A stretch of 64,000 bases of DNA from Bdellovibrionota bacterium (GTDB lineage Bacteria; Bdellovibrionota_C; UBA2361; JBGSMV01), in contig JBIKWF010000008.1 of NCBI GenBank assembly GCA_044356455.1, positions 15,304 to 79,303 of the forward strand. Direction: 5' to 3'. A program made the translations under genes and the position numbers. Positions 12,949 through 63,866 of this stretch are shown in pieces (position 1 is the first letter of the stretch; every line of letters begins with the position of its first letter). Under the pieces are notes generated by a model. The model was given only the letters and a program-made list of their open reading frames with translations, ran no database searches and was not told the origin of the DNA.

Positions 12949-13084
12949 TAGGGAGCCTCTGAAAAACTGACCTCTGTGTACCTCTGAGTCTCTGTGGTGA
13001 AATTTTCATGAAGAAATTCACCAGAGACGACACGGAGGTACACAGAGGTGTATTAAGACTGAAGGCTTTCGGAGGTTCCCTAGA
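12949..13084. repeat. MITE-like dispersed repeat, copy C (subfamily with ctctgtgtacctc...gaggtacacagag palindromic core)
   Basis: Termini tagggagcctctgaaaaactg ... ctttcggaggttccctag. The right terminus supplies the TAG stop of hipA. Confidence 0.7.
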
Positions 13085-14303
13085 GTAGTTCCCCCAAGTC
13101 CCCCCGCCGCTTGTGCATCATCTTCCGAAGGTCAATTGTTTGTTTCTCCGTGAGACCAATTTCTGCCAAGCGTTCGATCCAGGGCGAAGATTTCTCAACA
13201 AGATCTGACAGAATACGGCGCATAGCAGGAGCGCGTACTCCGCAGCGTTCTCCGAAAGCAATAAAATCTCGCGCTTTAAGATTGTCGTCGCGGCCTTCAA
13301 AGCTAAGCGCCATGGTGCGATCGCCGTAGGGAAGCGTTGCGACAAGATCATAAGCGGGGGTGAGGCGTATCGAACCTGTGCCTGGATCGGTAGCGAGACT
13401 AATATTCTTGGCGTGCAAATCTCCGTTAGTGATGAGGTAAGAGAAAGCCTTTAATCGTAAAAGCTTGGCGCATTCAACTATTGGTGCGGAACTACGCGAG
13501 GCTATTCCTTCTGCTATCTCACGAAAGCTGAGGCGGTATTTATCTGCGGGGTATCGGTCGAGAAATTGGCAGGCGTCTTCCTGATGGATTTTCTCAGCTT
13601 TCTTTGTGATTTTATTGAAACGTCGATCGAAGCGTTCGAGAAGAAGTCCTGACGAGCCCCCGCGGTCCTTTACGAGCATACAGCGAGGTACTTCGAGACC
13701 GCAGGCGCGCGCCATTTCTGTGAAAAAGAATTCGTTTTCTGCAATTCTGGGAAATTCAGGAGGGCTGAGTTTAAGAATGCAAAAGCGCCGGCGCATTTTC
13801 ACCTGCACCGGGAACGAAATCATGCCGGCAGAAATCTTTGGTTGTATTCCCGCTATGGTCAGGTCTCTTGCCCGCTCTGCCGGATCTTGGGCAGCGATGG
13901 CTTTTTGAAAAAGCTCATGGAAGTTAACCTGCTCAAGTTCATAGGCCTCACCTTTCATAGTAGGAGGGGAAGTATCGGGGGCAGTTACCGAGATGTCTCC
14001 GATGATATCCCCGCCGCTTCCAAGGAGCAGACTAAAGAGGTCATCCTCAGAGGTCTTTAGTATCGTGCGCAGTGCTTTAAGGCGCAGTCCTTCGGGAAGT
14101 AATCCCGCGAAGAAAGGATGCAGGTTTGAGCCCGTGACTTCATACGTCCGTCTGCGTGGTGGCATCGTGTAGGAGACACCCTCGCTCTCTGGGGCCGCAG
14201 CATCAAAGTAGGTGAATGTTGCGCCAAGTGCCGTGCGGCGTAGTTCGCCGATGAGGGCTTCACCTTTATAGACGTGAGCAGTGCTGAGAGCCTTAGGTTC
14301 CAT
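13080..14303 (-). CDS. hipA: HipA family serine/threonine kinase toxin
   Basis: HipA N-terminal and C-terminal kinase domains, with the catalytic motif NGDLHAKNISL. Confidence 0.9.
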   Translation of the reverse strand: MEPKALSTAHVYKGEALIGELRRTALGATFTYFDAAAPESEGVSYTMPPRRRTYEVTGSNLHPFFAGLLPEGLRLKALRTILKTSEDDLFSLLLGSGGDIIGDISVTAPDTSPPTMKGEAYELEQVNFHELFQKAIAAQDPAERARDLTIAGIQPKISAGMISFPVQVKMRRRFCILKLSPPEFPRIAENEFFFTEMARACGLEVPRCMLVKDRGGSSGLLLERFDRRFNKITKKAEKIHQEDACQFLDRYPADKYRLSFREIAEGIASRSSAPIVECAKLLRLKAFSYLITNGDLHAKNISLATDPGTGSIRLTPAYDLVATLPYGDRTMALSFEGRDDNLKARDFIAFGERCGVRAPAMRRILSDLVEKSSPWIERLAEIGLTEKQTIDLRKMMHKRRGDLGELL

Positions 14304-19787: not shown

Positions 19788-22445
19788 TTAGAAGCTTCTT
19801 GCCGCACAGCAGGCATAATTTCTCACAGCCCCGTACAGGTCAAAGTTAACTATTCCATCAGTTGGATTCACGGATGAGGGGCCAAAGCAGCGACTCGCAA
19901 CGCGCCGGTACACCGCATAGGCAACAAAACTTGAAGATGAGCCAACCGATCGAAGAGTGACACTTCCCGTATGAAGCCAGGTGTCATCGGGGAAATTGAG
20001 TCCAAGATTTGCCCGATTCGCGCACGCATACGCGAGGTCTTGGTGCTCACACACGCGGCCGCCAAGTGAATAGCACCGGTTCAAGGCCTCTTCGATTGTT
20101 CCAGATGCAGTGAAGCTTGGCTCTATACAGGTAGGTCCAAGGTCAATCCATCCAGCTGGGCACGAGAGTGTAGGTGTGTTTCCGGCAGGTCCTTGTGGAC
20201 CTATCGGGCCAATTGCTCCGGTATCACCCTTAGGCCCTTGCAGACCAATAGCGCCAGGCAATCCTTGGGGCCCTGCGGGTCCCGCTGGGCCAGCGACGCC
20301 GGTATCGCCCTTTAATCCTTGTGGGCCAGTTGCTCCCATGTCGCCTTTGAGACCTTGAGGTCCTGCGGGACCTGTAGCTCCTGTATCCCCCTTCAATCCC
20401 TGTAGTCCCGTGGGACCGGTTGCGCCAGTATCACCCTTGAGACCTTGTGCGCCTTGAGGTCCCATAGGTCCAGCAACACCCGTATCTCCTTTTTGTCCCG
20501 TTAGACCTTGCTCGCCGCGATCACCCTTAAGACCTTGCGGGCCTTGTGGTCCAATAGCACCCGCATCACCCTTGTCACCTTTGGGACCGACTGCTCCGTC
20601 AGCTCCCGCAGGTCCGGTTGCACCGGTATCTCCTTTCACTCCCGCCAGACCCTGTTCACCGCGATCCCCTTTAAGTCCTTGCGGGCCTTGTGGTCCAACC
20701 GCACCAACATCACCTTTATCGCCCTTGGGTCCGGCCGCTCCATCTGCTCCTACAGGTCCAGCTGCGCCGGTATCACCCTTTAGACCTTGTGCGCCTTGCG
20801 GTCCCGCAGGTCCGACATTTCCCGTATCTCCTTTTGGTCCCACCAAACCTTGCTCGCCGGTATCACCCTTAAGTCCTTGCGGGCCCTGTGGTCCAACCGC
20901 ACCGGCATCGCCTTTGTCGCCCTTGGGACCGACCGCTCCATCTGCTCCTGCAGGTCCAGTTGCGCCAGTATCACCCTTTAGACCTTGTGCGCCTTGAGGT
21001 CCTGCAGTTCCGACATCTCCCGTATCTCCTTTTGGTCCCACCAAACCTTGCTCGCCGGTATCACCCTTAAGTCCTTGCGGGCCCTGTGGTCCAACCGCAC
21101 CAACATCACCTCTATCGCCCTTTGGACCGACTGCTCCATCAGCTCCCGCTGGCCCAGTTGCTCCGGTTTCACCTTTGAGACCTTGTGCGCCTTGCGGCCC
21201 CGCCGGTCCGACATTTCCCGTATCTCCCTTTTGTCCCGCAAGACCTTGCTCTCCGCGATCTCCTTTCAGTCCTTGCGGGCCTTGTGGTCCAACCGCTCCC
21301 GCATCACCTTTTTCGCCCTTCGGACCGAGCGCTCCATCTGCTCCTGCAGGTCCAGTTGCTCCAGTATCACCCTTAAGACCTTGTGTGCCTTGCGGCCCGG
21401 CAGGTCCTACATCTCCCGTATCTCCTTTTGGTCCCACCAAACCTTGCTCGCCTCGATCACCCTTAAGTCCTTGCGGGCCCTGTGGTCCAACCGCACCAGC
21501 ATCGCCTTTGTCGCCCTTGGGACCGACCGCTCCATCTGCTCCTGCAGGCCCAGTTGCACCGGTATCACCTTTAAGACCTTGTGCACCTTGCGGACCCATA
21601 GGTCCAGCAACACCCATATCTCCTTTTGGTCCCGCAAGACCTTGCTCTCCGCGATCTCCTTTCAGTCCTTGCGGGCCTTGTGGTCCAACAGCACCCGCAT
21701 TACCCGTTGGTCCTTGCTCTCCTTGTTCGCCCTTTAACCCCTGAGGTCCAGCAACTCCGGCATCGCCCTTCTCTCCTTTTGGACCTTGAGCCCCATCAGC
21801 TCCCGCCTGGCCCTGCAAGCCGGGAAGTCCTTGTGGGCCTGCAATTCCCTGTGGACCTTGTTGCCCCTCTGCTCCCGTGGCGCCGGTCTCACCTTTCTCA
21901 CCGCGTTCTCCTTGCGATCCCGCCGGGCCAGCAGGCCCTTCAGGACCCATTGGTCCGGTGTCGCCTTTATCACCCTTGGGCCCTTGCACTTGAAGGGCGC
22001 CGAGAAGTTCAAGGAGTTCAGTAATGGTTACGACGGAAGATAAAAGAGGATAGCTTCGCCCAGAATGGCCACTTGTGTAGACCTGCAAATAAACTTTGCC
22101 TGAGGGACTTTTTGGAACCGAGACTGCGAGAGTAATAAGTCCGTCACGATCAATTTTTCCTGTGCCGACAATACTCGCGCCGCTCGCAGGCTTCGCTTGC
22201 GACCCTTGCAAGACAAAAACATCCGGCTTCAAGCTTATGCCAAGGGTATAGTTGGTGAAGGCCACACCTCGAATCGAGACATTTACTTTGGTGTCCCCAC
22301 CCGCACTCAGAATCGCAGGCTCCGAAACGGAAATATCTGGCGCCTCTTTGTTCCAGGAATCAGCCTGCGCTTCCCGTCGCCCTATCAGCAAGCCAAGGAA
22401 CAGCGCAGCAACAATCGGATTGAGGAGCAGCACTGGATACTTCAA
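19788..22445 (-). CDS. secreted collagen-like triple-helix repeat protein with a Cys-rich C-terminal globular domain
   Basis: Signal peptide, then about 600 aa of uninterrupted Gly-X-Y with 66-aa (198 bp) tandem units. The C-terminus [14 protein letters not shown]...[14 protein letters not shown] may be C-type lectin-like. Confidence 0.85.
20480..21720. repeat. tandem 198-bp coding repeats (about 6 units) inside the collagen-like gene
   Basis: gtatcacccttaagtccttgcgggccctgtggtccaaccgcacc recurs at about 20861, 21058 and 21454. The encoded units are 22 Gly-X-Y triplets. Confidence 0.8.
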
Positions 22446-44627: not shown

Positions 44628-46439
44628 CTACTCAAGCAACTGAAGCGCCAAAGCCGGAGCCTGATTCGCTTGTGCGAGAATCGCCGTTGCAATCTCCTTG
44701 AGCGTTCTCGTTTGAACCAATGCCGCGCTTTCGTTTGCGATATCAATATTCGTGATTCTTGCAGACGCCGCATCATAGTTCTCTTTTGAGGAGCTTAGGG
44801 TGTTCAGAGCTACTGCAAGCCGGCTCTGGGTACTTCCTATAGCACCAAGCTCTTTAGATACTCTCGCAAGCGTCGCATCAATCACCGATAACGAACCTAG
44901 CGCTTCTGCGCGCGTCGTAAGATTGAGGCGCTGCATCGAGGTTACTTGCTCGCTGTTAGCAAGCCCGATTCTAAAGCCCGAGCTTGCGTTAGTAGAGACG
45001 AGGTAGTCGGCGGTGCCATCTCCGTTGAAATCACCAATCGAGAGATTACTTGCGAATGGAAGGACAACAGTTCCAAAAGTATTCGAAGCGCCAAATGTCC
45101 CATCCGCTGAGCCGTACCTGCCCTGCATCGTGCCATTTGCATTCACGAGAATGTCTGAGACTCCGTCTGCGTTGAGGTCAGCCACCTTGAGCGTATATAT
45201 AAAGCCACCGAAGGCTATCGAAGCTGCGTCCGCGAAGGTTCCGTCCCCCCGCCCCAAGTTTACCAAAGCGTTCGAACCTGAAGTGCCAATCGAATCAAGA
45301 ATTCCGTCGCGGTTAAAATCGGCGAGCTGCCGAGAGGAGGTCAATCCTGACGCTATCCCCGAACCAAAGGTGCCATTGCCCGAACCAAAGTAGCTTTTCA
45401 ATCCAGTAAGAATATCTATGCTCCCATTTCCGTCTAAATCTCCCAGCAGAGCAGCGCTGCCCCCAGTTCCTGAGATAGTTTGCGTCGGGGTGGATGAGAA
45501 AGACCCTGAGGCCGAGGCAAGGTGCACCGTATGAGCTCCGGAGGCTCCGACTAACAAGTCCGTTCGCCCATCATTGTTCAAATCCGCGGCCGCAAGACTG
45601 GAAATACCCGAAAATCCGCCGACCGCAGAGGTCCCAAAGCTCCCAGTTCCTAAATTGGTATAGATGACGACAGAAACCGAGGTCACGTCTTGAGCTGCGA
45701 TATCTATCCGACCATCCCCATTAAAGTCGCCAATAACGACTTGTGCAGAAGCAGCAGTGGAGCCTTGGGCCTGAGAAGTAAAAGTGCCGTTACTGTTACC
45801 GAAATAGGTAACAATATTCCCCAACTCAGATGTGACAACGTCCATAATGCCGTCGCCATTAAAATCAGCTTCAACCTGAGAATTTACAAAATTGGCGCCA
45901 CCTAAGTTGCTGCTCACAAAGGTTCCGTTCCCGGCAGTCCGGTCCAACTCAGTTCCAAGCCCGAATCCAATTGAGCCTGAAGTCCCCAGTCCTAGTTGTA
46001 GTCTCAACTCGCGCAGATCTCCGTCGAGAAGATTAATTCCGTTGTACGTCACACTGCTGAAGATCCGGTTGTACTCTTCAGTAAGCGCAGCCGCTTCTTT
46101 GTCCGATGATATCCTCTGAGTTCTGGAAAACGACCCGTTAGATGCTCCTATCGCAAGCTCTCTTAGCCGAAGAAGAATTCCCGATCCGCTCGTGAGCGCG
46201 CCCTCGGCAATAGAAAGTGCACTGATACCGTCGTTCGCATTTCTAATCGCCTGCGAGAAAATGCGGCTACTTACGTTAAGCTGGGAAGATACGGAGAGCC
46301 CCGCTGCATCGTCTGAAGCTCGGTTGATACGCATGCCGGAGGCCAGCCGCTCGAAGCTCAGCGACTCCGCCGACGTGGCTCGGTTCAACTGGCGCTGCGC
46401 CAGAAGAGAGGAAATGTTCGAACCAATTGAAATTGGCAT
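44628..46439 (-). CDS. fliC: flagellin with FG-GAP beta-propeller central domain
   Basis: Flagellin N-terminal region RINRASDDAAGLSVSSQL...NANDGISALSIAEGAL. Flagellin C-terminal region ends LAQANQAPALALQLL. About 7 FG-GAP repeats (DFNGDGIMDVV, DLNNDGRTDLL, DLDGNGSIDIL and others) replace the usual variable domain. Confidence 0.8.
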   Translation of the reverse strand: MPISIGSNISSLLAQRQLNRATSAESLSFERLASGMRINRASDDAAGLSVSSQLNVSSRIFSQAIRNANDGISALSIAEGALTSGSGILLRLRELAIGASNGSFSRTQRISSDKEAAALTEEYNRIFSSVTYNGINLLDGDLRELRLQLGLGTSGSIGFGLGTELDRTAGNGTFVSSNLGGANFVNSQVEADFNGDGIMDVVTSELGNIVTYFGNSNGTFTSQAQGSTAASAQVVIGDFNGDGRIDIAAQDVTSVSVVIYTNLGTGSFGTSAVGGFSGISSLAAADLNNDGRTDLLVGASGAHTVHLASASGSFSSTPTQTISGTGGSAALLGDLDGNGSIDILTGLKSYFGSGNGTFGSGIASGLTSSRQLADFNRDGILDSIGTSGSNALVNLGRGDGTFADAASIAFGGFIYTLKVADLNADGVSDILVNANGTMQGRYGSADGTFGASNTFGTVVLPFASNLSIGDFNGDGTADYLVSTNASSGFRIGLANSEQVTSMQRLNLTTRAEALGSLSVIDATLARVSKELGAIGSTQSRLAVALNTLSSSKENYDAASARITNIDIANESAALVQTRTLKEIATAILAQANQAPALALQLLE

Positions 46440-56547: not shown

Positions 56548-58035
56548 TCACGCGGAGCCACCATTTGACGTGTCTCCATCCTTAAGCACAAAACGCGCTG
56601 AAAGCATGGCGACGGTGCGAGCGAGTTTAGCTTTCTCAACAGAAGCGAGCACCTCCGCGAAAGGTTTATACGCCTGAGGCGCTTCATCCAGAGGATATCT
56701 CCGGCAGTTACTGAGAATGTCTGCCCTGTCTAGCTGCGCATCAACCTCTCCCTGGATAAGTTCACGCTGCGCTCTTGAGCGGCTCATGGCACGCCCAGCC
56801 CCATGGTTGACGCTGTAACAACTGAGCGCCGCACCAGGCTCTGCAACCATGACCGCGGAGCCAGCGGCGGGATTTCCAGGAAGCAAAATGGGGTGGCCAC
56901 TCGCTTCGTAGCGTGTTCCCTCAAGTCCGGGATGTCCTGCGGGGAATGCTCTCGTTGCTCCTTTGCGATGAACCCACGTGGGCTCTCCTTCAACGATCTC
57001 CTTGCGCGCAATATTATGGCTAATGAAATAAACCAAGTCGCCCGAAAGCCCAGGGAAAATTTCCTGAAATGCCTCAAGAACAAGAGCATTAATGAGCAAG
57101 TGATTGAGCGTCGCAAAGTTTGCGCCGAGCGCAAGGTCATCTAAATAGCAATCGGCCTCACTCGTTCCAAGAGGAGCATACACGAGCTCACGATCGCCGC
57201 CCGGGAAAGGAATTCCGCTTGCCGCGAATTTACCCTGGAGTGTCTTAAATTGCTGTTGTGCGAGGAGGTACCCAAAGCCGCGCGAGCCGCAATGCGAAAG
57301 AAAAGCGATTTTACCGTCGCTGAGACCAAAGCTCTTGGCGATAGCTTCTTCGCCGCGAGTAACCCTCACGGTATTGGCTTCACCAAAGTGATTTCCACCA
57401 CCGTAGGAACCTAGCTGCTGAATCTTTGATTCAAGCACGTCACTTCCCCAGGAACCTTCGACCAGCTCAAGACGCTTGCCAAGAGACTGAGAAGTTCCGT
57501 CATTTCCGAAATGTCGCGAGTCCTCACACGCATCCGTCCATGCGAAGGGAATACCCAACGCAGAGCATACTTCGGCTGAGGCGCCTTCGATGGCAAGTCT
57601 GCGTCCCGTGGCCAAATCCACATGCCGTGCTTTCCTCACAGAACGCTGCCCTTTGCCGGAGCCGGTAGGAAGGCGCTGCATGAGAGCGTTTATCACTGCG
57701 CGCCTCGCTTCTTTGCTGAGAAGTTCCTCTTCGGGAAGATTCGTCTGAAGAAGGCTCATCGAGCATTTGATGTCTACGCCCACGGGAGCTGGATAGATAT
57801 GTGTCGGCGAGGTGAGGACGCTGCCGACAGGCGCTCCGTATCCCGCGTGTGCATCAGGATTGAGGACTACCTTGGTGACCCCGGGAGCAAGTCGGCTATT
57901 TATGGCTTGCTGCAGGCACTTTTCGTCGAAGGAGGTGCGAATACTCTCGGTGCCAATGACCGTAATGGGAGTCACCGAAGAGTCAGGAACGGGGAGAATT
58001 CCCACCGCTTCTTCAACTGGAATTACCTTATTCAT
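56548..58035 (-). CDS. rtcB: RNA 3'-phosphate ligase RtcB
   Basis: Motifs PDAHAGYG, HNI/HCGSRG and C-terminal NHGAGR. 495 aa. Confidence 0.9.
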   Translation of the reverse strand: MNKVIPVEEAVGILPVPDSSVTPITVIGTESIRTSFDEKCLQQAINSRLAPGVTKVVLNPDAHAGYGAPVGSVLTSPTHIYPAPVGVDIKCSMSLLQTNLPEEELLSKEARRAVINALMQRLPTGSGKGQRSVRKARHVDLATGRRLAIEGASAEVCSALGIPFAWTDACEDSRHFGNDGTSQSLGKRLELVEGSWGSDVLESKIQQLGSYGGGNHFGEANTVRVTRGEEAIAKSFGLSDGKIAFLSHCGSRGFGYLLAQQQFKTLQGKFAASGIPFPGGDRELVYAPLGTSEADCYLDDLALGANFATLNHLLINALVLEAFQEIFPGLSGDLVYFISHNIARKEIVEGEPTWVHRKGATRAFPAGHPGLEGTRYEASGHPILLPGNPAAGSAVMVAEPGAALSCYSVNHGAGRAMSRSRAQRELIQGEVDAQLDRADILSNCRRYPLDEAPQAYKPFAEVLASVEKAKLARTVAMLSARFVLKDGDTSNGGSA

Positions 58036-58147
58036 AGAACGTCTCTCTTAATTTTTACTTACTGTTTAAATCTCCCAATTCTTCCCGTGGAAGCAATAAA
58101 AAAGCTGCATTTCTCCAGGAATGACTTGCGCATCAGAGCAGCGAGAA

Positions 58148-58300
58148 CTAGGGAATCCCTGAAAACATAGCTATTTTATTCTGTTCTCTCTGTGAGCTCT
58201 GTGTCCTCTGTGGTTTTTCAACAATTTAAATCAACCACAGAGGGCGCAGAGTTCACAGAGAGAAGAAATGAAGTATCGCGGTCTTTCAGAGGTTCCCTAG
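58148..58300. repeat. MITE-like dispersed repeat, copy F (subfamily with ctctgtggtt...aaccacagagg palindromic core)
   Basis: Termini ctagggaatccctgaaaacatag ... ctttcagaggttccctag. It lies inside the operon between the SPFH gene and rtcB. Confidence 0.7.
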
Positions 58301-58363
58301 AGGCGTGCCCCCCCCGGCCGGTGCGGAGTGTGTGCGCTCATGGCACACACTCCGGGTTCCGAA

Positions 58364-59485
58364 TTACTTCGTGAGAGAAACGAGGCCTTTCATGACTCCG
58401 TCAAGTCCATCGTAGACCGTAAGCTTCCCTACCTTCTCACTAATACGCTCGACCGCCTCAAGCTCCTTTAACCTAAGGAGCACGGGATTATTCTCCATCA
58501 TCCTCGCGGTATTCATAAGCGAACGCGTGGCGGCGGTCTCTTCGCGCCGGCGAATATTCTGAGCCTGGGCAGCCTTTTCAGCTTCAACTACCTGGTTCAG
58601 GAGTGCGCGCATTTCACCGGGAAGGATGAGATCCTTAACCCCGATACGCACGATCTCGATTCCGCACACCTCCATCGCAGCCTTAATCTCGGAAGCAAGA
58701 ACTCTATTAAGAAGCTCCTTGTTCTCAAGCAACTCATCCAGAGTCTTCTCTCCCACGGCCTGCCGAAGTGCGAGCTGGGCGCAGCGATAAATCTCGCCCA
58801 GTATATCGCTTAGCGCGCGTGTTGCCTTGACCGCGTCTACCAAACGATAACTCACGCTCAAGTTCACCCGAAGAGATACCTTGTCCTTTGTGAGCATCTC
58901 CTGTCCGCTTACCTCAAGTGCAGTCAAGCGAGTATCTAGAATGCTCACAGACAAATCGCGCTGGGCGCGCCAGAATGCGTAGTGCCCAGGTGCGAGTTCA
59001 CGGACAATCACTCCCGATTCGAGCAGCAATCCCCTACATTGCTCAGGAACGCTCACACGCAGAATCTTGGGATCCGCCGCCAAACCAGACAAATTGCGCA
59101 CCGTCTCGCGGTCCAGCTCATACCCCTCCGAGATCTCGAACCTTTTGACGTTGATCTCAGCAAGCCCTTTCCAAAAGAGACGCTCTTCGCTCGGCATCAC
59201 AAGACAAGAAGCTTGCGAATTGAGGTACACCACGGCCACTTCACGAGGCCCTGTTTCAACCTTAACCAAGAACTCTGCAAGCTCAGAGGTGAAGCGATTC
59301 GCAAGCAGCTGGGCAATGGGCCCACGAAGCTCTACCTCCTTAGCGATATCGGAAATCGCAACGGCGACCTTACAAAGGGGGTTTAAGAATCGGTAGCTTC
59401 CAGGGGCAAGGATGCGTTCAAAGCGCTTATCTTTATAAAGAATCCCACGTTCGGTGCTTCCAATAACAATCTTTTTCATATTCAC
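58364..59485 (-). CDS. SPFH/band-7 (slipin-like) protein with about 170-aa N-terminal extension, co-transcribed with rtcB
   Basis: SPFH core LTKDKVSLRVNLSVSYRLVD...GIEIVRIGVKDLILPGEM...EAEKAAQAQ. RBS AGGAG 8 nt upstream of the ATG. Confidence 0.8.
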   Translation of the reverse strand: MNMKKIVIGSTERGILYKDKRFERILAPGSYRFLNPLCKVAVAISDIAKEVELRGPIAQLLANRFTSELAEFLVKVETGPREVAVVYLNSQASCLVMPSEERLFWKGLAEINVKRFEISEGYELDRETVRNLSGLAADPKILRVSVPEQCRGLLLESGVIVRELAPGHYAFWRAQRDLSVSILDTRLTALEVSGQEMLTKDKVSLRVNLSVSYRLVDAVKATRALSDILGEIYRCAQLALRQAVGEKTLDELLENKELLNRVLASEIKAAMEVCGIEIVRIGVKDLILPGEMRALLNQVVEAEKAAQAQNIRRREETAATRSLMNTARMMENNPVLLRLKELEAVERISEKVGKLTVYDGLDGVMKGLVSLTK

Positions 59486-59700
59486 ATCTCCTTAGCTCAA
59501 CTACACATTCAAAAAGGGAGGAGACCTCCTCACGAAAACAGCGCGGGGCTTGAGCGTGTCATCGGGGGGTGCTTCGATGTCCACACCATCGAAGCGCCGC
59601 AGAACGAGGCACCACTTCTCAAAACTACAAGGCGCTGCCCGCGCCAAGGCTTGCGCCTTGCTTGGGAATCTCCTCTGTTACAGTGAGAGCTTTCGCTCTC

Positions 59701-59772
59701 AGGACATAGGCAGGAGTCGAACCTGCTACACATCGATTAACACTCGATTGCTCTACCCATGAGCTACTATGG
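59701..59772 (-). ncRNA. tRNA-Asn(GUU)-like cloverleaf element, possibly a pseudo-tRNA or Y-RNA/tRNA-like regulatory RNA
   Basis: Hand fold of the minus strand. D-arm GCTC-ATGGGTA-GAGC. Anticodon stem ATCGA/TCGAT with loop GTGTTAA (anticodon GTT). T-arm GCAGG-TTCGACT-CCTGC. The acceptor stem pairs at only 5 of 7 positions (1:72 and 2:71 mismatched), and there is no encoded CCA. Confidence 0.5.
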
Positions 59773-59887
59773 TGACCGGTCCTCTTCGACGCGGTACGCG
59801 GCTGAGACTAGATTAGTTATCCAACTCTGCTGCGCCGCCCGGCCTTGCTGAAGCCAGTCGTCCAGTGAACAGTCGAAGCTATATAGA

Positions 59888-59903
59888 GCATCAAATGTGC
59901 CAC
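59888..59903 (-). promoter_or_regulatory. sigma-54 (-24/-12) promoter for the tRNA-like element, SPFH gene and rtcB
   Basis: Minus strand reads TGGCAC-ATTTG-ATGC with exact GG/GC spacing. It lies about 100 bp from the divergent rtcR start, as expected for an RtcR-dependent promoter. Confidence 0.55.
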
Positions 59904-59952
59904 GGCTTAATATGCTGAAATATTTAGCTTTATATTGAGTAGAGCGGCCCGC

Positions 59953-59981
59953 TTACATATCTATTGAGATAGTTCTATAAT
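59953..59981 (+). promoter_or_regulatory. candidate sigma-70 promoter of rtcR (leaderless or near-leaderless)
   Basis: TTACAT-N17-TATAAT. The -10 box ends 7 nt before the rtcR ATG at 59989. Confidence 0.35.
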
Positions 59982-59988
59982 TAAAGAT

Positions 59989-61596
59989 ATGAATCGAGTT
60001 GCCTTTGGCTTTTTAGGAACCAAGCTTGATGCCTTTGGGGGCTTTGGCGAGAAGCGCTTAAAAACCTGGCGTCCTTCGGTGGCGCTGGGCCTCGACCAGG
60101 CTCTTGGGCTTAGCCGGTTTGAGCTCTGGTACAATGAGCGCTTCGCGCGGGTTGCCAAGCTCGTTAAAGACGACATCGAAGAACAGCGAGTAGGAATTCA
60201 GGTGATTCTGCGCGAGGCATCTATTCGCGACCCATGGAATTTTGAGGAGGTGTACAGCTTTCTTTTTGATTTTAGTACGAGCTACCCCTTCAAAACCGAG
60301 AGCGAAGAATACTTCATACATCTCACCACCGGTACGCATGTCGCGCAAATCTGTCTCTTTCTTTTAACTGAGTCGCGGCATTTTCCTGGAAAGCTTGTTC
60401 AAACGAATCCACGAGGCAAGCAGACCGAAGAAGAATTGAGCATCATCGACCTTGACCTCTCCAACTATGACAAACTTGCAAGACGCTTTGAGCAGAAACG
60501 AGGAGCCGACCTAGAACTCCTTAAAGCGGGAATCAAAACTCTCAGTGCCTCATTCAATTCATTAATTTCTGAAATTGAAGTAGTAGCGCGTGCAAGTAGC
60601 GATCCGCTATTGCTTCTCGGACCCACGGGAGCGGGAAAGTCAAAGCTCGCCCAGCAGATCTATCTTCTCAAGCAATCCCAGCACCGCGTTCAGGGAGAAT
60701 TTGTAGATGTGAATTGCGCGACCATACGGGGAGAACAAGCCATGTCTGCCCTTTTTGGACATGCCAAGGGGGCTTTTACGGGAGCCATTGGTAAACGCGA
60801 TGGGTTATTAAAAAAGGCGCATAAAGGCCTGCTCTTTCTGGACGAGATCGGCGAACTCGGTCTTGACGAGCAAGCGATGCTTCTTCGAGCAATAGAAGAG
60901 AAACGGTTTTTCCCCCTCGGGAGCGACCAGGAGGAGCGTAGCGATTTCCAGCTCATTTCGGGAACTAATCGCGACCTTAACGAGAGAGTCAGCGCCGGGC
61001 TATTTCGAGAGGACCTTTTGCGGCGTATTGATATTTGGAGCTTTGAACTTCCGGCACTTAGAGACCGTAAGGAGGATATAGAGCCGAATCTTGAATTCGA
61101 GCTAAAAAAATTCGAGGAACGTTCAGGTCGTCGAATTACCTTTAGCAGTGAGGCAAAGAAAGCATTTCTTAGCTTTGCCACAGGTCCTCTCGCTCTTTGG
61201 CCTGGAAACTTTCGCGACTTAAACGCCTCGGTGACTCGAATGGCTACACTTGCTCCTCAAGGGCGAATTAGTATGGAAGTCGTGGAAGTTGAGACTCAAA
61301 GACTTACTCGGGCATGGCGCTATCCGCAGAAAGCCGAATCCGCTCTTGGAGAAGTGGAATCAATTATTCGCTTGGCAGGACTTTCTCCTGAGCTTGTCGA
61401 TCCCTTTGACAGGCCACAGCTTGCTGCGGTGCTGCAGGCGCTTGCCCGTGCTCGTTCAATTGCAGAGGCCGGACGTGAGCTTTTTGCAGTTTCGCGGAGG
61501 GAACGTTCAGTGGTTAATGACTCTGACAGGCTCAGGAAATACCTAAACCGATTTGGAATAGATGCGAGGCGGATTGTGGGGACCAATACTCGTTAA
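59989..61596 (+). CDS. rtcR: sigma-54-dependent transcriptional activator RtcR (CARF-AAA+-HTH)
   Basis: 535 aa. Walker A GPTGAGKS and sigma-54-contact motif GHAKGAFTGA. An N-terminal non-receiver, CARF-like domain. Divergent from the rtcB operon. Confidence 0.85.
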   Translation: MNRVAFGFLGTKLDAFGGFGEKRLKTWRPSVALGLDQALGLSRFELWYNERFARVAKLVKDDIEEQRVGIQVILREASIRDPWNFEEVYSFLFDFSTSYPFKTESEEYFIHLTTGTHVAQICLFLLTESRHFPGKLVQTNPRGKQTEEELSIIDLDLSNYDKLARRFEQKRGADLELLKAGIKTLSASFNSLISEIEVVARASSDPLLLLGPTGAGKSKLAQQIYLLKQSQHRVQGEFVDVNCATIRGEQAMSALFGHAKGAFTGAIGKRDGLLKKAHKGLLFLDEIGELGLDEQAMLLRAIEEKRFFPLGSDQEERSDFQLISGTNRDLNERVSAGLFREDLLRRIDIWSFELPALRDRKEDIEPNLEFELKKFEERSGRRITFSSEAKKAFLSFATGPLALWPGNFRDLNASVTRMATLAPQGRISMEVVEVETQRLTRAWRYPQKAESALGEVESIIRLAGLSPELVDPFDRPQLAAVLQALARARSIAEAGRELFAVSRRERSVVNDSDRLRKYLNRFGIDARRIVGTNTR

Positions 61597-61638: not shown

Positions 61639-61804
61639 CCTAGGTTTCTGCGTCGCAGAAACCTAGGGCGGCTCTAAAAAACTTTAATATTCTATTTTCT
61701 CTCTCTGTGAACTCTGTGCCCTCTGTGGTTGATTTAAATTATTGAAAAACCACAGAGGACACAGAGAAAAAATAATATATCGAGGTTTTTCAGAAGTTCC
61801 TTAG
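61639..61804. repeat. MITE-like dispersed repeat, copy G
   Basis: Starts with the perfect palindrome cctaggtttctgcgtcgcagaaacctagg, then ctagggcggctctaaaaaac ... tttttcagaagttccttag. The right terminus contains the ABC-F stop codon. Confidence 0.65.
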
Positions 61805-63770: not shown

Positions 63771-63866
63771 CCTCTGTGGTTGATTTAAATTATGGAAAAC
63801 CATAGAGGACACAGAGTTCACAGAGAGAAAAGAATAAAATATCGAGGTTTTTCAGGGAGTCCCTAG
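63771..63866. repeat. MITE-like dispersed repeat, copy H (5'-truncated)
   Basis: Core cctctgtggttgatttaaattatggaaaaccatagaggacacagag and right terminus tttttcagggagtccctag. No left terminus is present. Confidence 0.55.

Follow-up and report, generated by a model that had tools for sequence, protein, structure and literature searches.

We identified a tRNA-shaped module in the middle of a structured leader that precedes an RNA-repair operon in a Bdellovibrionota bacterium (GenBank assembly GCA_044356455.1). The DNA analysed is a stretch of 64,000 nucleotides (nt) of contig JBIKWF010000008.1 (positions 15,304 to 79,303 of the forward strand), hereafter called the window, whose own numbering is used throughout. 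The operon encodes a Band-7/SPFH ('slipin') protein and the RNA ligase RtcB, and lies divergent to the gene of the activator RtcR. The module is very probably a non-decoding, tRNA-shaped noncoding RNA of the 'Band-7-associated tRNA' class, as known from a secondary description, and forms the middle of a ~365-nt leader transcribed from an RtcR/sigma-54 promoter ahead of the Band-7 gene and rtcB. As an explanation of the evidence as a whole, we favour with moderate confidence a Band-7-associated tRNA-like RNA that acts as cofactor or scaffold of the Band-7 protein.

The tRNA-like module and its family

ARAGORN reported a single tRNA-like gene in the whole 64-kb window, of 72 nt and with the anticodon GTT, on the minus strand (59773..59702). 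The Rfam tRNA model (RF00005) matched it at 46.4 bits (gathering score 29; window-wide E = 1e-6), with model positions 1-71 fully covered in the standard topology 5'-acceptor-D-anticodon-T-acceptor-3'. In the Infernal alignment, the D (4 bp), anticodon (5 bp) and T (5 bp) stems are intact and acceptor pairs 3-7 are standard; exactly two pairs are non-standard, A1.C72 and C2.U71, both at the end of the acceptor stem. The anticodon loop has 7 nt (GUGUUAA, i.e., U33, GUU and A37), the discriminator is C, and the bases that follow are UGA, so that CCA is not encoded. These results agree with the original prediction, made from the letters of the DNA by hand folding, of a tRNA-Asn(GUU)-like cloverleaf with near-perfect D-, anticodon- and T-arms, an acceptor stem paired at 5 of 7 positions with two terminal mismatches, and a discriminator C. 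ARAGORN and Infernal/Rfam, which it had proposed as checks, returned the tRNA match and left the acceptor stem at 5 of 7 pairs. The coordinates given there, 59701-59772, point to the right site but are one base off, and the strand, which had not been stated, is the minus strand. In the region 59400-60050, Rfam 15 in permissive mode identified only the tRNA, the three other matches (E ~1-6) being far under their thresholds.

Nine close relatives of the locus were found by exact-protein look-ups (L001 and L114-L121, where L numbers denote loci), with Band-7 proteins 59-75% identical to that of the window; the closest named one comes from an uncultured Bdellovibrionales genome. The window and these nine loci make up the ten relatives compared below. 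Two further relatives from the look-ups had no DNA to compare, and a metagenome scan for close relatives returned mostly distant loci. The arrangement of rtcR, an intergenic region of ~480 nt, the Band-7 gene and RtcB is identical in all nine, and the intergenic regions of the ten loci can be aligned throughout. The tRNA body is ~90% identical across the ten, yet its 'anticodon' reads GUU, AAG, UGU, AGU, GAU, GAU, UGU or GUA, and the acceptor stem comprises only 3-6 pairs, the outer pairs being missing in the nine closest orthologous loci as well.

The module also belongs to a much wider family. When one genome per species was scanned by alignment, 80 loci with Band-7 homologues of 38-69% identity emerged, mostly from Gamma- and Betaproteobacteria, with some from Chloroflexota, Acidobacteriota and Moduliflexus. 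Loci were taken in via the Band-7 protein, so that all prevalence counts are conditional on Band-7. ARAGORN detected a tRNA-like gene on the same strand, at most ~900 nt (mostly 150-550 nt) upstream of the Band-7 gene, in 66 of the 80 loci. With R3, a covariance model of 71 sequences, a member of at least 58 bits was found on the same strand and within ~730 nt upstream of Band-7 in about 81 of the 85 loci with enough upstream DNA, including loci where ARAGORN had seen nothing. These positive loci span Bdellovibrionales-like bacteria, Gamma- and Betaproteobacteria, Chloroflexota, Acidobacteriota and Moduliflexus, and the spacer between module and Band-7 gene varies widely across phyla (150-630 nt). 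Because the module recurs at the equivalent position in 9/9 close relatives and in ~81/85 more distant Band-7 loci, its presence in the window goes beyond chance. In phage genomes, no homologue of the Band-7 protein was found at E <= 1e-10.

The conservation within the family is that of a folded tRNA. The D stem GCUC/GAGC is invariant (71/71); the anticodon stem is paired in 98.6% and the T stem in 99.7% of cases, with compensatory changes in five of five and four of five pairs, respectively, and the inner four acceptor pairs are 94-97% paired, all of them with compensatory changes. The covariation score of the 71 sequences is 0.606, compared to 0.159 in shuffles. The nucleotides of the tertiary core are kept likewise, i.e., U8 (67/71), A14 (71/71), the GG of the D loop (70/71) and the T loop UUCRANU (70/71), and the Levitt pair 15:48 covaries (G:C in 40, U:A in 15 and A:U in 6). 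Since the stems covary and the tertiary nucleotides are retained, we conclude that selection acts on the L-shaped fold. One D arm is common to all members irrespective of the 'anticodon', and this suggests a single noncoding RNA family, not a mixture of isoacceptor tRNAs. The comparison thus separates the selected parts of the RNA (the D/T elbow, the inner acceptor stem and the core helix of the 5' leader domain described below) from the free ones (the outer acceptor pairs and positions 34/35).

Two tRNA-like modules stand in tandem in many Beta- and Gammaproteobacteria, the first of them often degenerate. The first module lies ~70-160 nt upstream of the proximal one (L009, L012, L017, L019, L024, L039, L041, L044, L050, L054, L061, L073-L075, L078), and in the tandem loci of Xanthomonadales it has a 5-6-nt 'anticodon' loop and an end ..CCACC that runs straight into the second module. 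Besides, large same-strand tRNA arrays occur inside or beside a number of Band-7 loci (L018, L023, L036, L015, L050, L067, L029, L033, L047, L085, L088, L091, L098, L112, L113). L018 has 28 tRNAs that flank the Band-7 gene on both sides and are followed by an RtcB paralogue (L018:671-5985), L023 has 20 and L036 has 15. Within the array of L018, a GOLLD RNA (RF02032, 154.9 bits, threshold 150) at positions 1478-1964 encloses the tRNA at 1549-1620, which is a case of a giant ornate RNA adjoining a Band-7/RtcB cluster in a gammaproteobacterial chromosome.

Evidence against a role in decoding

The module is almost certainly non-decoding. Family-wide, the acceptor pairs 1:72, 2:71 and 3:70 are formed in 37%, 56% and 69% of the members; the first of these values is at chance level, since random bases would pair in 37.5% of cases. 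A full 7-bp acceptor stem occurs in 8 of 68 members and an encoded CCA in 9 of 68, compared to 133 and 148, respectively, of the 210 array tRNAs of the same loci, which serve as a rough control. Of the 71 members, 57 have an anticodon loop of 7 nt and the other 14 one of 5, 6 or 8 nt. In the 7-nt loops, 21 different 'anticodon' triplets occur and the four bases are equiprobable at position 34, while C32, U33, U36, A37 and A38 are each kept in 72-84%. G73 is an identity element for asparaginyl-tRNA synthetase, and the module of the window has C73 instead. In the bacterial initiator tRNA, an open 1:72 pair keeps the molecule from EF-Tu, and the open 1:72 pair in the family fits a role outside elongation.

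An ordinary tRNA-Asn is practically ruled out by the mismatched 1:72 and 2:71 pairs, C73, the absence of an encoded CCA and an anticodon that is not conserved at the orthologous locus. In principle, CCA addition could follow processing. The original prediction had considered that this might be a real tRNA whose terminal pairs had been misfolded by hand. This reading is not supported, as the covariance-model alignment repeats both mismatches, and the nine orthologues are without the outer pairs and carry other anticodons. Genes of this kind should not be counted as tRNA-Asn, tRNA-Thr, tRNA-Met etc. in genome annotation.

A genuine spare tRNA-Asn, induced by stress, processed, CCA-tailed and charged to replace damaged tRNA, is already largely refuted and appears very improbable to us. 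Such a tRNA would be in line with a score above the Rfam tRNA threshold, with the canonical 7-nt loop containing U33 and A37, with the true tRNA arrays (full stems, CCA) in the same neighbourhood of other Band-7 loci and with the inducible tRNA operon of Anabaena, whose regulation is shared by rtcB and a slipin gene (PMC8421152, PMC10272220). It is at odds with the same mismatches, discriminator and lack of CCA that argue against an ordinary tRNA-Asn, and also with the other anticodons at the orthologous positions of the nine closest relatives, with 1:72 pairing at chance family-wide and with one D arm shared by all members.

The broken acceptor stem and the absent CCA would also suit a decaying tRNA pseudogene or an integration-site remnant. 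This explanation, to which we attach a negligible probability, is refuted by covariation and synteny. Purifying selection on the sequence is strong, compensatory changes being present in three stems and a tertiary pair across dozens of genomes of several phyla, and its position relative to the Band-7 gene is fixed. Of the genes scanned with Pfam, none showed an integrase domain, which bears out the view in the original prediction that no integrase lies nearby and that the module is not an integration-site remnant.

Operon context and leader RNA

The features of the locus are compiled in Table 1. On the minus strand, the order is promoter, ~100 nt of leader, module, 216 nt closing in a hairpin and U-run, Band-7 gene and rtcB, all on the same strand as the module, with the Band-7 gene starting 216 nt downstream of it. 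The sigma-54-type promoter faces the divergent rtcR, and its bases TGG.A...TGC are invariant in the window and its nine relatives. Transcription of the leader, with a start expected near 59876, and the ends of the RNA are inferred. RtcA is not encoded in the operon, and no Ro60/TROVE protein was found in the operon or among the 22 open reading frames (ORFs) of at least 330 amino acids (aa) in the window that were scanned with Pfam. The Band-7 ORF is listed with a GTG start at 59485, only 2 nt away from the Shine-Dalgarno sequence AAGGAG (59493-59488), compared to 8 nt for the ATG at 59479; homologues align from residue 3 of the listed ORF, and the true start is probably ATG 59479.

Table 1. 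Features of the rtc locus in the window, in order from RtcR to RtcB.
Feature	Position (nt)	Strand	Basis and details
RtcR, sigma-54-dependent activator, N-terminal RtcR/CARF and sigma-54 AAA+ domains	59989..61596	plus	PF06956, 210 bits; PF00158, 160 bits
Sigma-54-type promoter TGGCAC-N5-aTGCt	59887..59902	minus	Read from sequence; GG 59901-59900, GC 59889-59888
5' leader domain, branched; core of a hairpin, then helix GGCGGCG.../...CGUaCCGCG	59774..59874	minus	RNAalifold and pair counts, ten relatives
tRNA-like module	59702..59773	minus	ARAGORN; Rfam tRNA 46.4 bits; family model R3 71.5 bits, E = 1.5e-20
Small hairpin U-GAGAGC-GAAA-GCUCUC-A, directly 3' of module	59684..59701	minus	Helix 9: 93% paired, 4/5 pairs with compensatory changes
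3' leader domain, multi-branched	59518..59675	minus	Helices 10-15: 84-92% paired, most pairs with compensatory changes
Terminator-like hairpin GGAGG-UCU-CCUCC, then C and UUUUU	59511..59531	minus	Terminator scan
Band-7/SPFH ('slipin') protein, 373 aa	58364..59485	minus	Pfam PF01145, 89 bits
RtcB RNA ligase, 495 aa, last gene of the operon	56548..58035	minus	PF01139, 327 bits

The module is the middle part of a covarying leader RNA of ~365 nt. For the stretch between the predicted start and the Band-7 gene, RNAalifold gave 98 pairs in the ten sequences, 64 of them with compensatory changes; 90.3% of the cells are paired, compared to 39-45% when the partners are slid, and the covariation was reached by 0 of 500 shuffles, a control that, like the other shuffle controls here, is not corrected for phylogeny. 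Model R1, representing the 5' domain, scored 86.6 bits in the window and matched, besides the clade, only L055 (E = 7e-5) and L065, where it exactly abuts the tRNA-like modules. In an alignment of 47 loci (A7), the core of the 5' domain is conserved across phyla as a hairpin followed by a helix YGGYGCRC/GYGURURCCR, with 13 pairs that are 95.7% paired, 11 of them with compensatory changes and a covariation reached by 0 of 500 shuffles; this alignment was anchored by hand on the sequence motif, which favours the motif, and the clade model alone added only L055 and L065. This cross-phylum 5' domain and the module are probably parts of one functional RNA.

The 3' domain, on the other hand, is specific to the Bdellovibrionales-like clade. 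Model R2 scored 160 bits in the window, and its convincing matches are limited to the ten close relatives, i.e., its own seed loci; the further matches, which were not inspected, are short, mostly downstream of Band-7 and resemble generic hairpins. The domain is closed by a long-range helix of GAGGAGA-UUCC (59675-59665) with GGAG-g-UCUCCUC (59529-59518), in which compensatory changes are present. The tetraloop of the small hairpin between module and 3' domain varies among the relatives (GAAA, GGAA, UUCG, CUUG), and its likeness to the GNCGAA motif of Y RNAs was discarded as a resemblance only. A pseudoknot between the linker CACCA (59775-59771) and the UGGUG loop of a hairpin in the 3' domain was also rejected, being 86.7% paired with a covariation no better than in shuffles. 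About half of all family members, the window (CACCA) among them, have a single-stranded CCAC or CAC linker ahead of a short acceptor stem. In one close relative (L115:3710-3792), the module is degenerate, having lost the D stem, and was missed by ARAGORN and R3; both flanking domains are kept (88 and 143 bits), and from this locus they may have a function of their own.

The end of the leader raises the question of a purely cis-acting role. A leader or attenuator of this type would let the fold, or the binding of a protein or a tRNA-related ligand, set the balance between a stop at the hairpin and U-run (59531-59511) and read-through into the Band-7 gene and rtcB. In all ten relatives, a terminator-like hairpin or helix with a T-run lies ~25 nt before the Band-7 ribosome-binding site, which leaves no room for another promoter between them. 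The 3' strand of this hairpin is at the same time the 3' strand of the helix closing the 3' domain, and has two possible partners, a local one and GAGGAGA-UUCC 140 nt upstream, the long-range helix showing compensatory changes. However, both pairings end at the same U-run, and there is thus no clear pair of on and off structures. Besides, the 3' domain is found in one clade only, while the tRNA-like module and the 5' core extend across phyla with spacers of 150-630 nt, and the Y RNAs encoded in the Salmonella operon act in trans, bound by Ro60/Rsr (PMC7790460). A purely cis-regulatory role is possible for the 3' domain and would not explain the family; as an account of the module, we regard it as quite improbable.

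The Band-7 protein and the proposed role

Our preferred reading, an RNA cofactor or scaffold, involves the Band-7 protein encoded directly downstream. This protein has no evident membrane helix. In its AlphaFold model (predicted local distance difference test score, pLDDT, 84.5), an SPFH domain and a long helix come after three beta modules at the N terminus. Foldseek matched the model to the SPFH cage formers stomatin, HflK/C, prohibitin and QmcA (E = 1e-15 to 1e-11), and to the major vault protein over essentially the whole query (E ~4e-11 to 2e-8). Based on the model, the protein is predicted to be built like a small major vault protein and is probably soluble and ring- or cage-forming.

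We propose that the role of the module is most likely that of an RNA cofactor or scaffold for the Band-7 protein, by analogy with Y RNA and Ro60. The strictly conserved elbow and D arm, the fixed inner acceptor stem, the free top of the acceptor, the free positions 34 and 35 and the near-universal linkage to Band-7 are, taken together, best explained in this way. How such an RNA would work can be outlined tentatively, in a scheme that we rate at slightly below an even chance. Upon activation of RtcR, presumably by cleaved tRNA ends as in Salmonella, the leader would be transcribed first. The module would fold into an L whose D/T-loop elbow, with the invariant D arm, could offer the recognition surface, while the open top of the acceptor and the missing CCA would keep it out of aminoacylation, EF-Tu binding and the ribosome. 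The soluble Band-7 protein, which probably forms rings or cages, could then have it as its RNA partner, comparable to Y RNA with Ro60 or vault RNA with the vault, in a particle that would bring in, retain or gate damaged tRNAs for RtcB, which is expressed alongside. The 3' domain and its terminator-like end would probably determine where the RNA ends on its 3' side or how much transcription reads through into the Band-7 gene and rtcB.

The main rival to the cofactor reading is a decoy or sensor, which we consider rather unlikely. The module would then be a bait for anticodon nucleases that either soaks up the toxin, so that real tRNAs are spared, or is itself cut into fragments with 2',3'-cyclic phosphates, which would keep RtcR active in a feed-forward manner until RtcB reseals the module. 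Variation within the module is concentrated at positions 34 and 35, inside the conserved loop frame (C32, U33, U36, A37, A38), and these two positions are where many anticodon nucleases recognise or cut their targets. The same fast change would, however, equally follow from a loss of the decoding constraint, and the 14 of 71 members with loops of 5, 6 or 8 nt would be poor mimics of a target. The module would be the first structured tRNA-shaped product of the RtcR promoter, and cleaved tRNAs are the known signal of RtcR (PMC7790460); a 'sponge' role has also been proposed for the operon tRNAs co-regulated with rtcB in Anabaena (PMC8421152). On the other hand, YrlA of Salmonella is not cleaved under inducing conditions (PMC7790460), and a decoy or sensor leaves the strict linkage to Band-7 and the conserved 5' domain unexplained.

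Several points weigh against a non-decoding Band-7 cofactor. About one in eight members, in Competibacter and others, have a complete acceptor stem or an encoded CCA, and some lineages may still process or charge the tRNA-like RNA. The loop frame C32-U33-N-N-U36-A37-A38 is retained in ~75-84% of the 7-nt loops, which suggests that the anticodon loop is still 'seen' by something and fits a decoy or sensor at least as well. Protein binding and function are drawn from gene neighbourhood and from the analogy with Ro60/Y RNA and the vault only, and the assignment to the Band-7-associated tRNA class follows a secondary description (10.1101/312249).

A more far-reaching version of the cofactor reading, speculative and in our opinion doubtful, would make the module the core of a larger structured RNA, in which one or two tRNA-like modules stand between lineage-specific 3' domains and a 5' domain shared by groups ranging from Bdellovibrionales-like bacteria to Gammaproteobacteria. 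With the mini-vault Band-7 protein, this RNA might form a vault- or Ro-like ribonucleoprotein that captures damaged tRNAs for RtcB, its 'anticodon' tracking the tRNA-cutting toxins of each lineage.

Comparison with known systems

The abstract of Burroughs and Aravind (2016) reportedly presents SPFH/Band-7 modules with "a novel tRNA-like molecule" as a pair of scaffold and RNA parallel to Ro60/Y RNA. A preprint on the structure of YrlA from 2018, which cites that study, states that certain bacteria encode RtcB beside a Band-7 protein and a predicted noncoding RNA, strongly tRNA-like, possibly redundant with YrlA and at that time without experimental validation (10.1101/312249). A literature text search returned no other paper using the term 'band 7-associated tRNA'. 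As described there, the three genomic features of the class, i.e., a noncoding RNA resembling tRNA, an adjoining Band-7/SPFH gene and RtcB in the cluster, are all present in the window, the recurrence across genomes is also observed (~81/85 loci), and nothing in our results contradicts membership. The element is thus a further example of a class already predicted in the literature, and its composite structured leader and vault-like partner supply further detail that can be tested; the details of the leader (5' domain, clade-specific 3' domain, tandem modules) and the vault-like Band-7 protein may exceed what has been published, as may the open top of the acceptor throughout the family, the drifting anticodon and a direct control by RtcR/sigma-54 in this clade.

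The original prediction had alternatively suggested a tRNA-like decoy or a Y-RNA-like module, as YrlA in Salmonella, transcribed from the RtcR sigma-54 promoter. In general terms this holds, with an invariant promoter on the same strand that faces rtcR, but the identity with YrlA is rejected, as no Ro60 gene was found in the operon or among the scanned ORFs of at least 330 aa and the module is not permuted. YrlA is bound by Ro60/Rsr via a stem formed by its 5' and 3' ends (PMC4201824; 10.1101/312249), whereas here no Rsr gene was found in that scan, the partner is Band-7 and the flanks of the module fold as separate 5' and 3' domains. YrlA's tRNA-like domain is circularly permuted, its 'acceptor' being closed by a loop and an anticodon loop being absent, in contrast to the normal topology and full 7-nt anticodon loop found here.

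The vault particle, composed of the major vault protein, TEP1 with its TROVE domain and vault RNA, resembles the locus in linking a cage-type SPFH protein with a small structured RNA. The major vault protein has ~850 aa and nine repeats, compared to 373 aa and about three repeats for the Band-7 protein, whose model aligns over its full length, through the N-terminal beta repeats, an SPFH-like shoulder and the long helix; the likeness is only an analogy. In Anabaena, translational or tRNA stress induces a tRNA operon together with rtcB and a slipin-family gene (PMC8421152, PMC10272220). Several Band-7 loci likewise carry arrays of 8-28 tRNAs, but many of these look ordinary and they comprise many isoacceptor types, whereas only one module, non-canonical and from one conserved family, is present in the window. 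With the canonical bacterial tRNA-Asn(GUU), the module shares the cloverleaf, GUU in a 7-nt loop, all standard tertiary nucleotides and a passing Rfam score; it differs in the unpaired 1:72 and 2:71, C73, the absence of CCA, an anticodon that drifts among orthologues and its position within a structured leader.

The Band-7 branch of the bacterial RNA-repair systems with Y RNAs or tRNA mimics, predicted in 2016, was described as unvalidated in 2018 (10.1101/312249). The locus is a minimal testable system, with one activator, one promoter, one structured RNA, one Band-7 protein and one ligase. Culturable carriers of the family include Xanthomonas phaseoli (L020), Pseudomonas peli (L074) and species of Undibacterium and Lysobacter.

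Additional observations

Toxin-antitoxin modules of the VapBC, HipBA and ParE types lie directly downstream of rtcB in several close relatives (L118:6925-7477, L119:6679-8261 and the P0021 locus). VapC toxins are tRNA nucleases. A HipA homologue is also encoded in the window, at 13080-14303.

The spacer between the Band-7 gene and rtcB is unusually long in the window, 328 nt compared to 27-205 nt in the relatives, and contains a long, nearly perfect palindrome at 58147-58301. The fold z-score of this palindrome is -7.65, its Rfam matches are spurious microRNA hairpins only, and copies of its arm occur at two other intergenic spots of the window (61700-61728 and 63800-63828); it resembles a repeated palindromic element of the REP/MITE type.

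Two further genes of the window are unrelated to the module: a flagellin in which FG-GAP repeats replace the central region (44628-46439), and a gene for a protein of 885 aa with extensive collagen triple-helix repeats (19788-22445).

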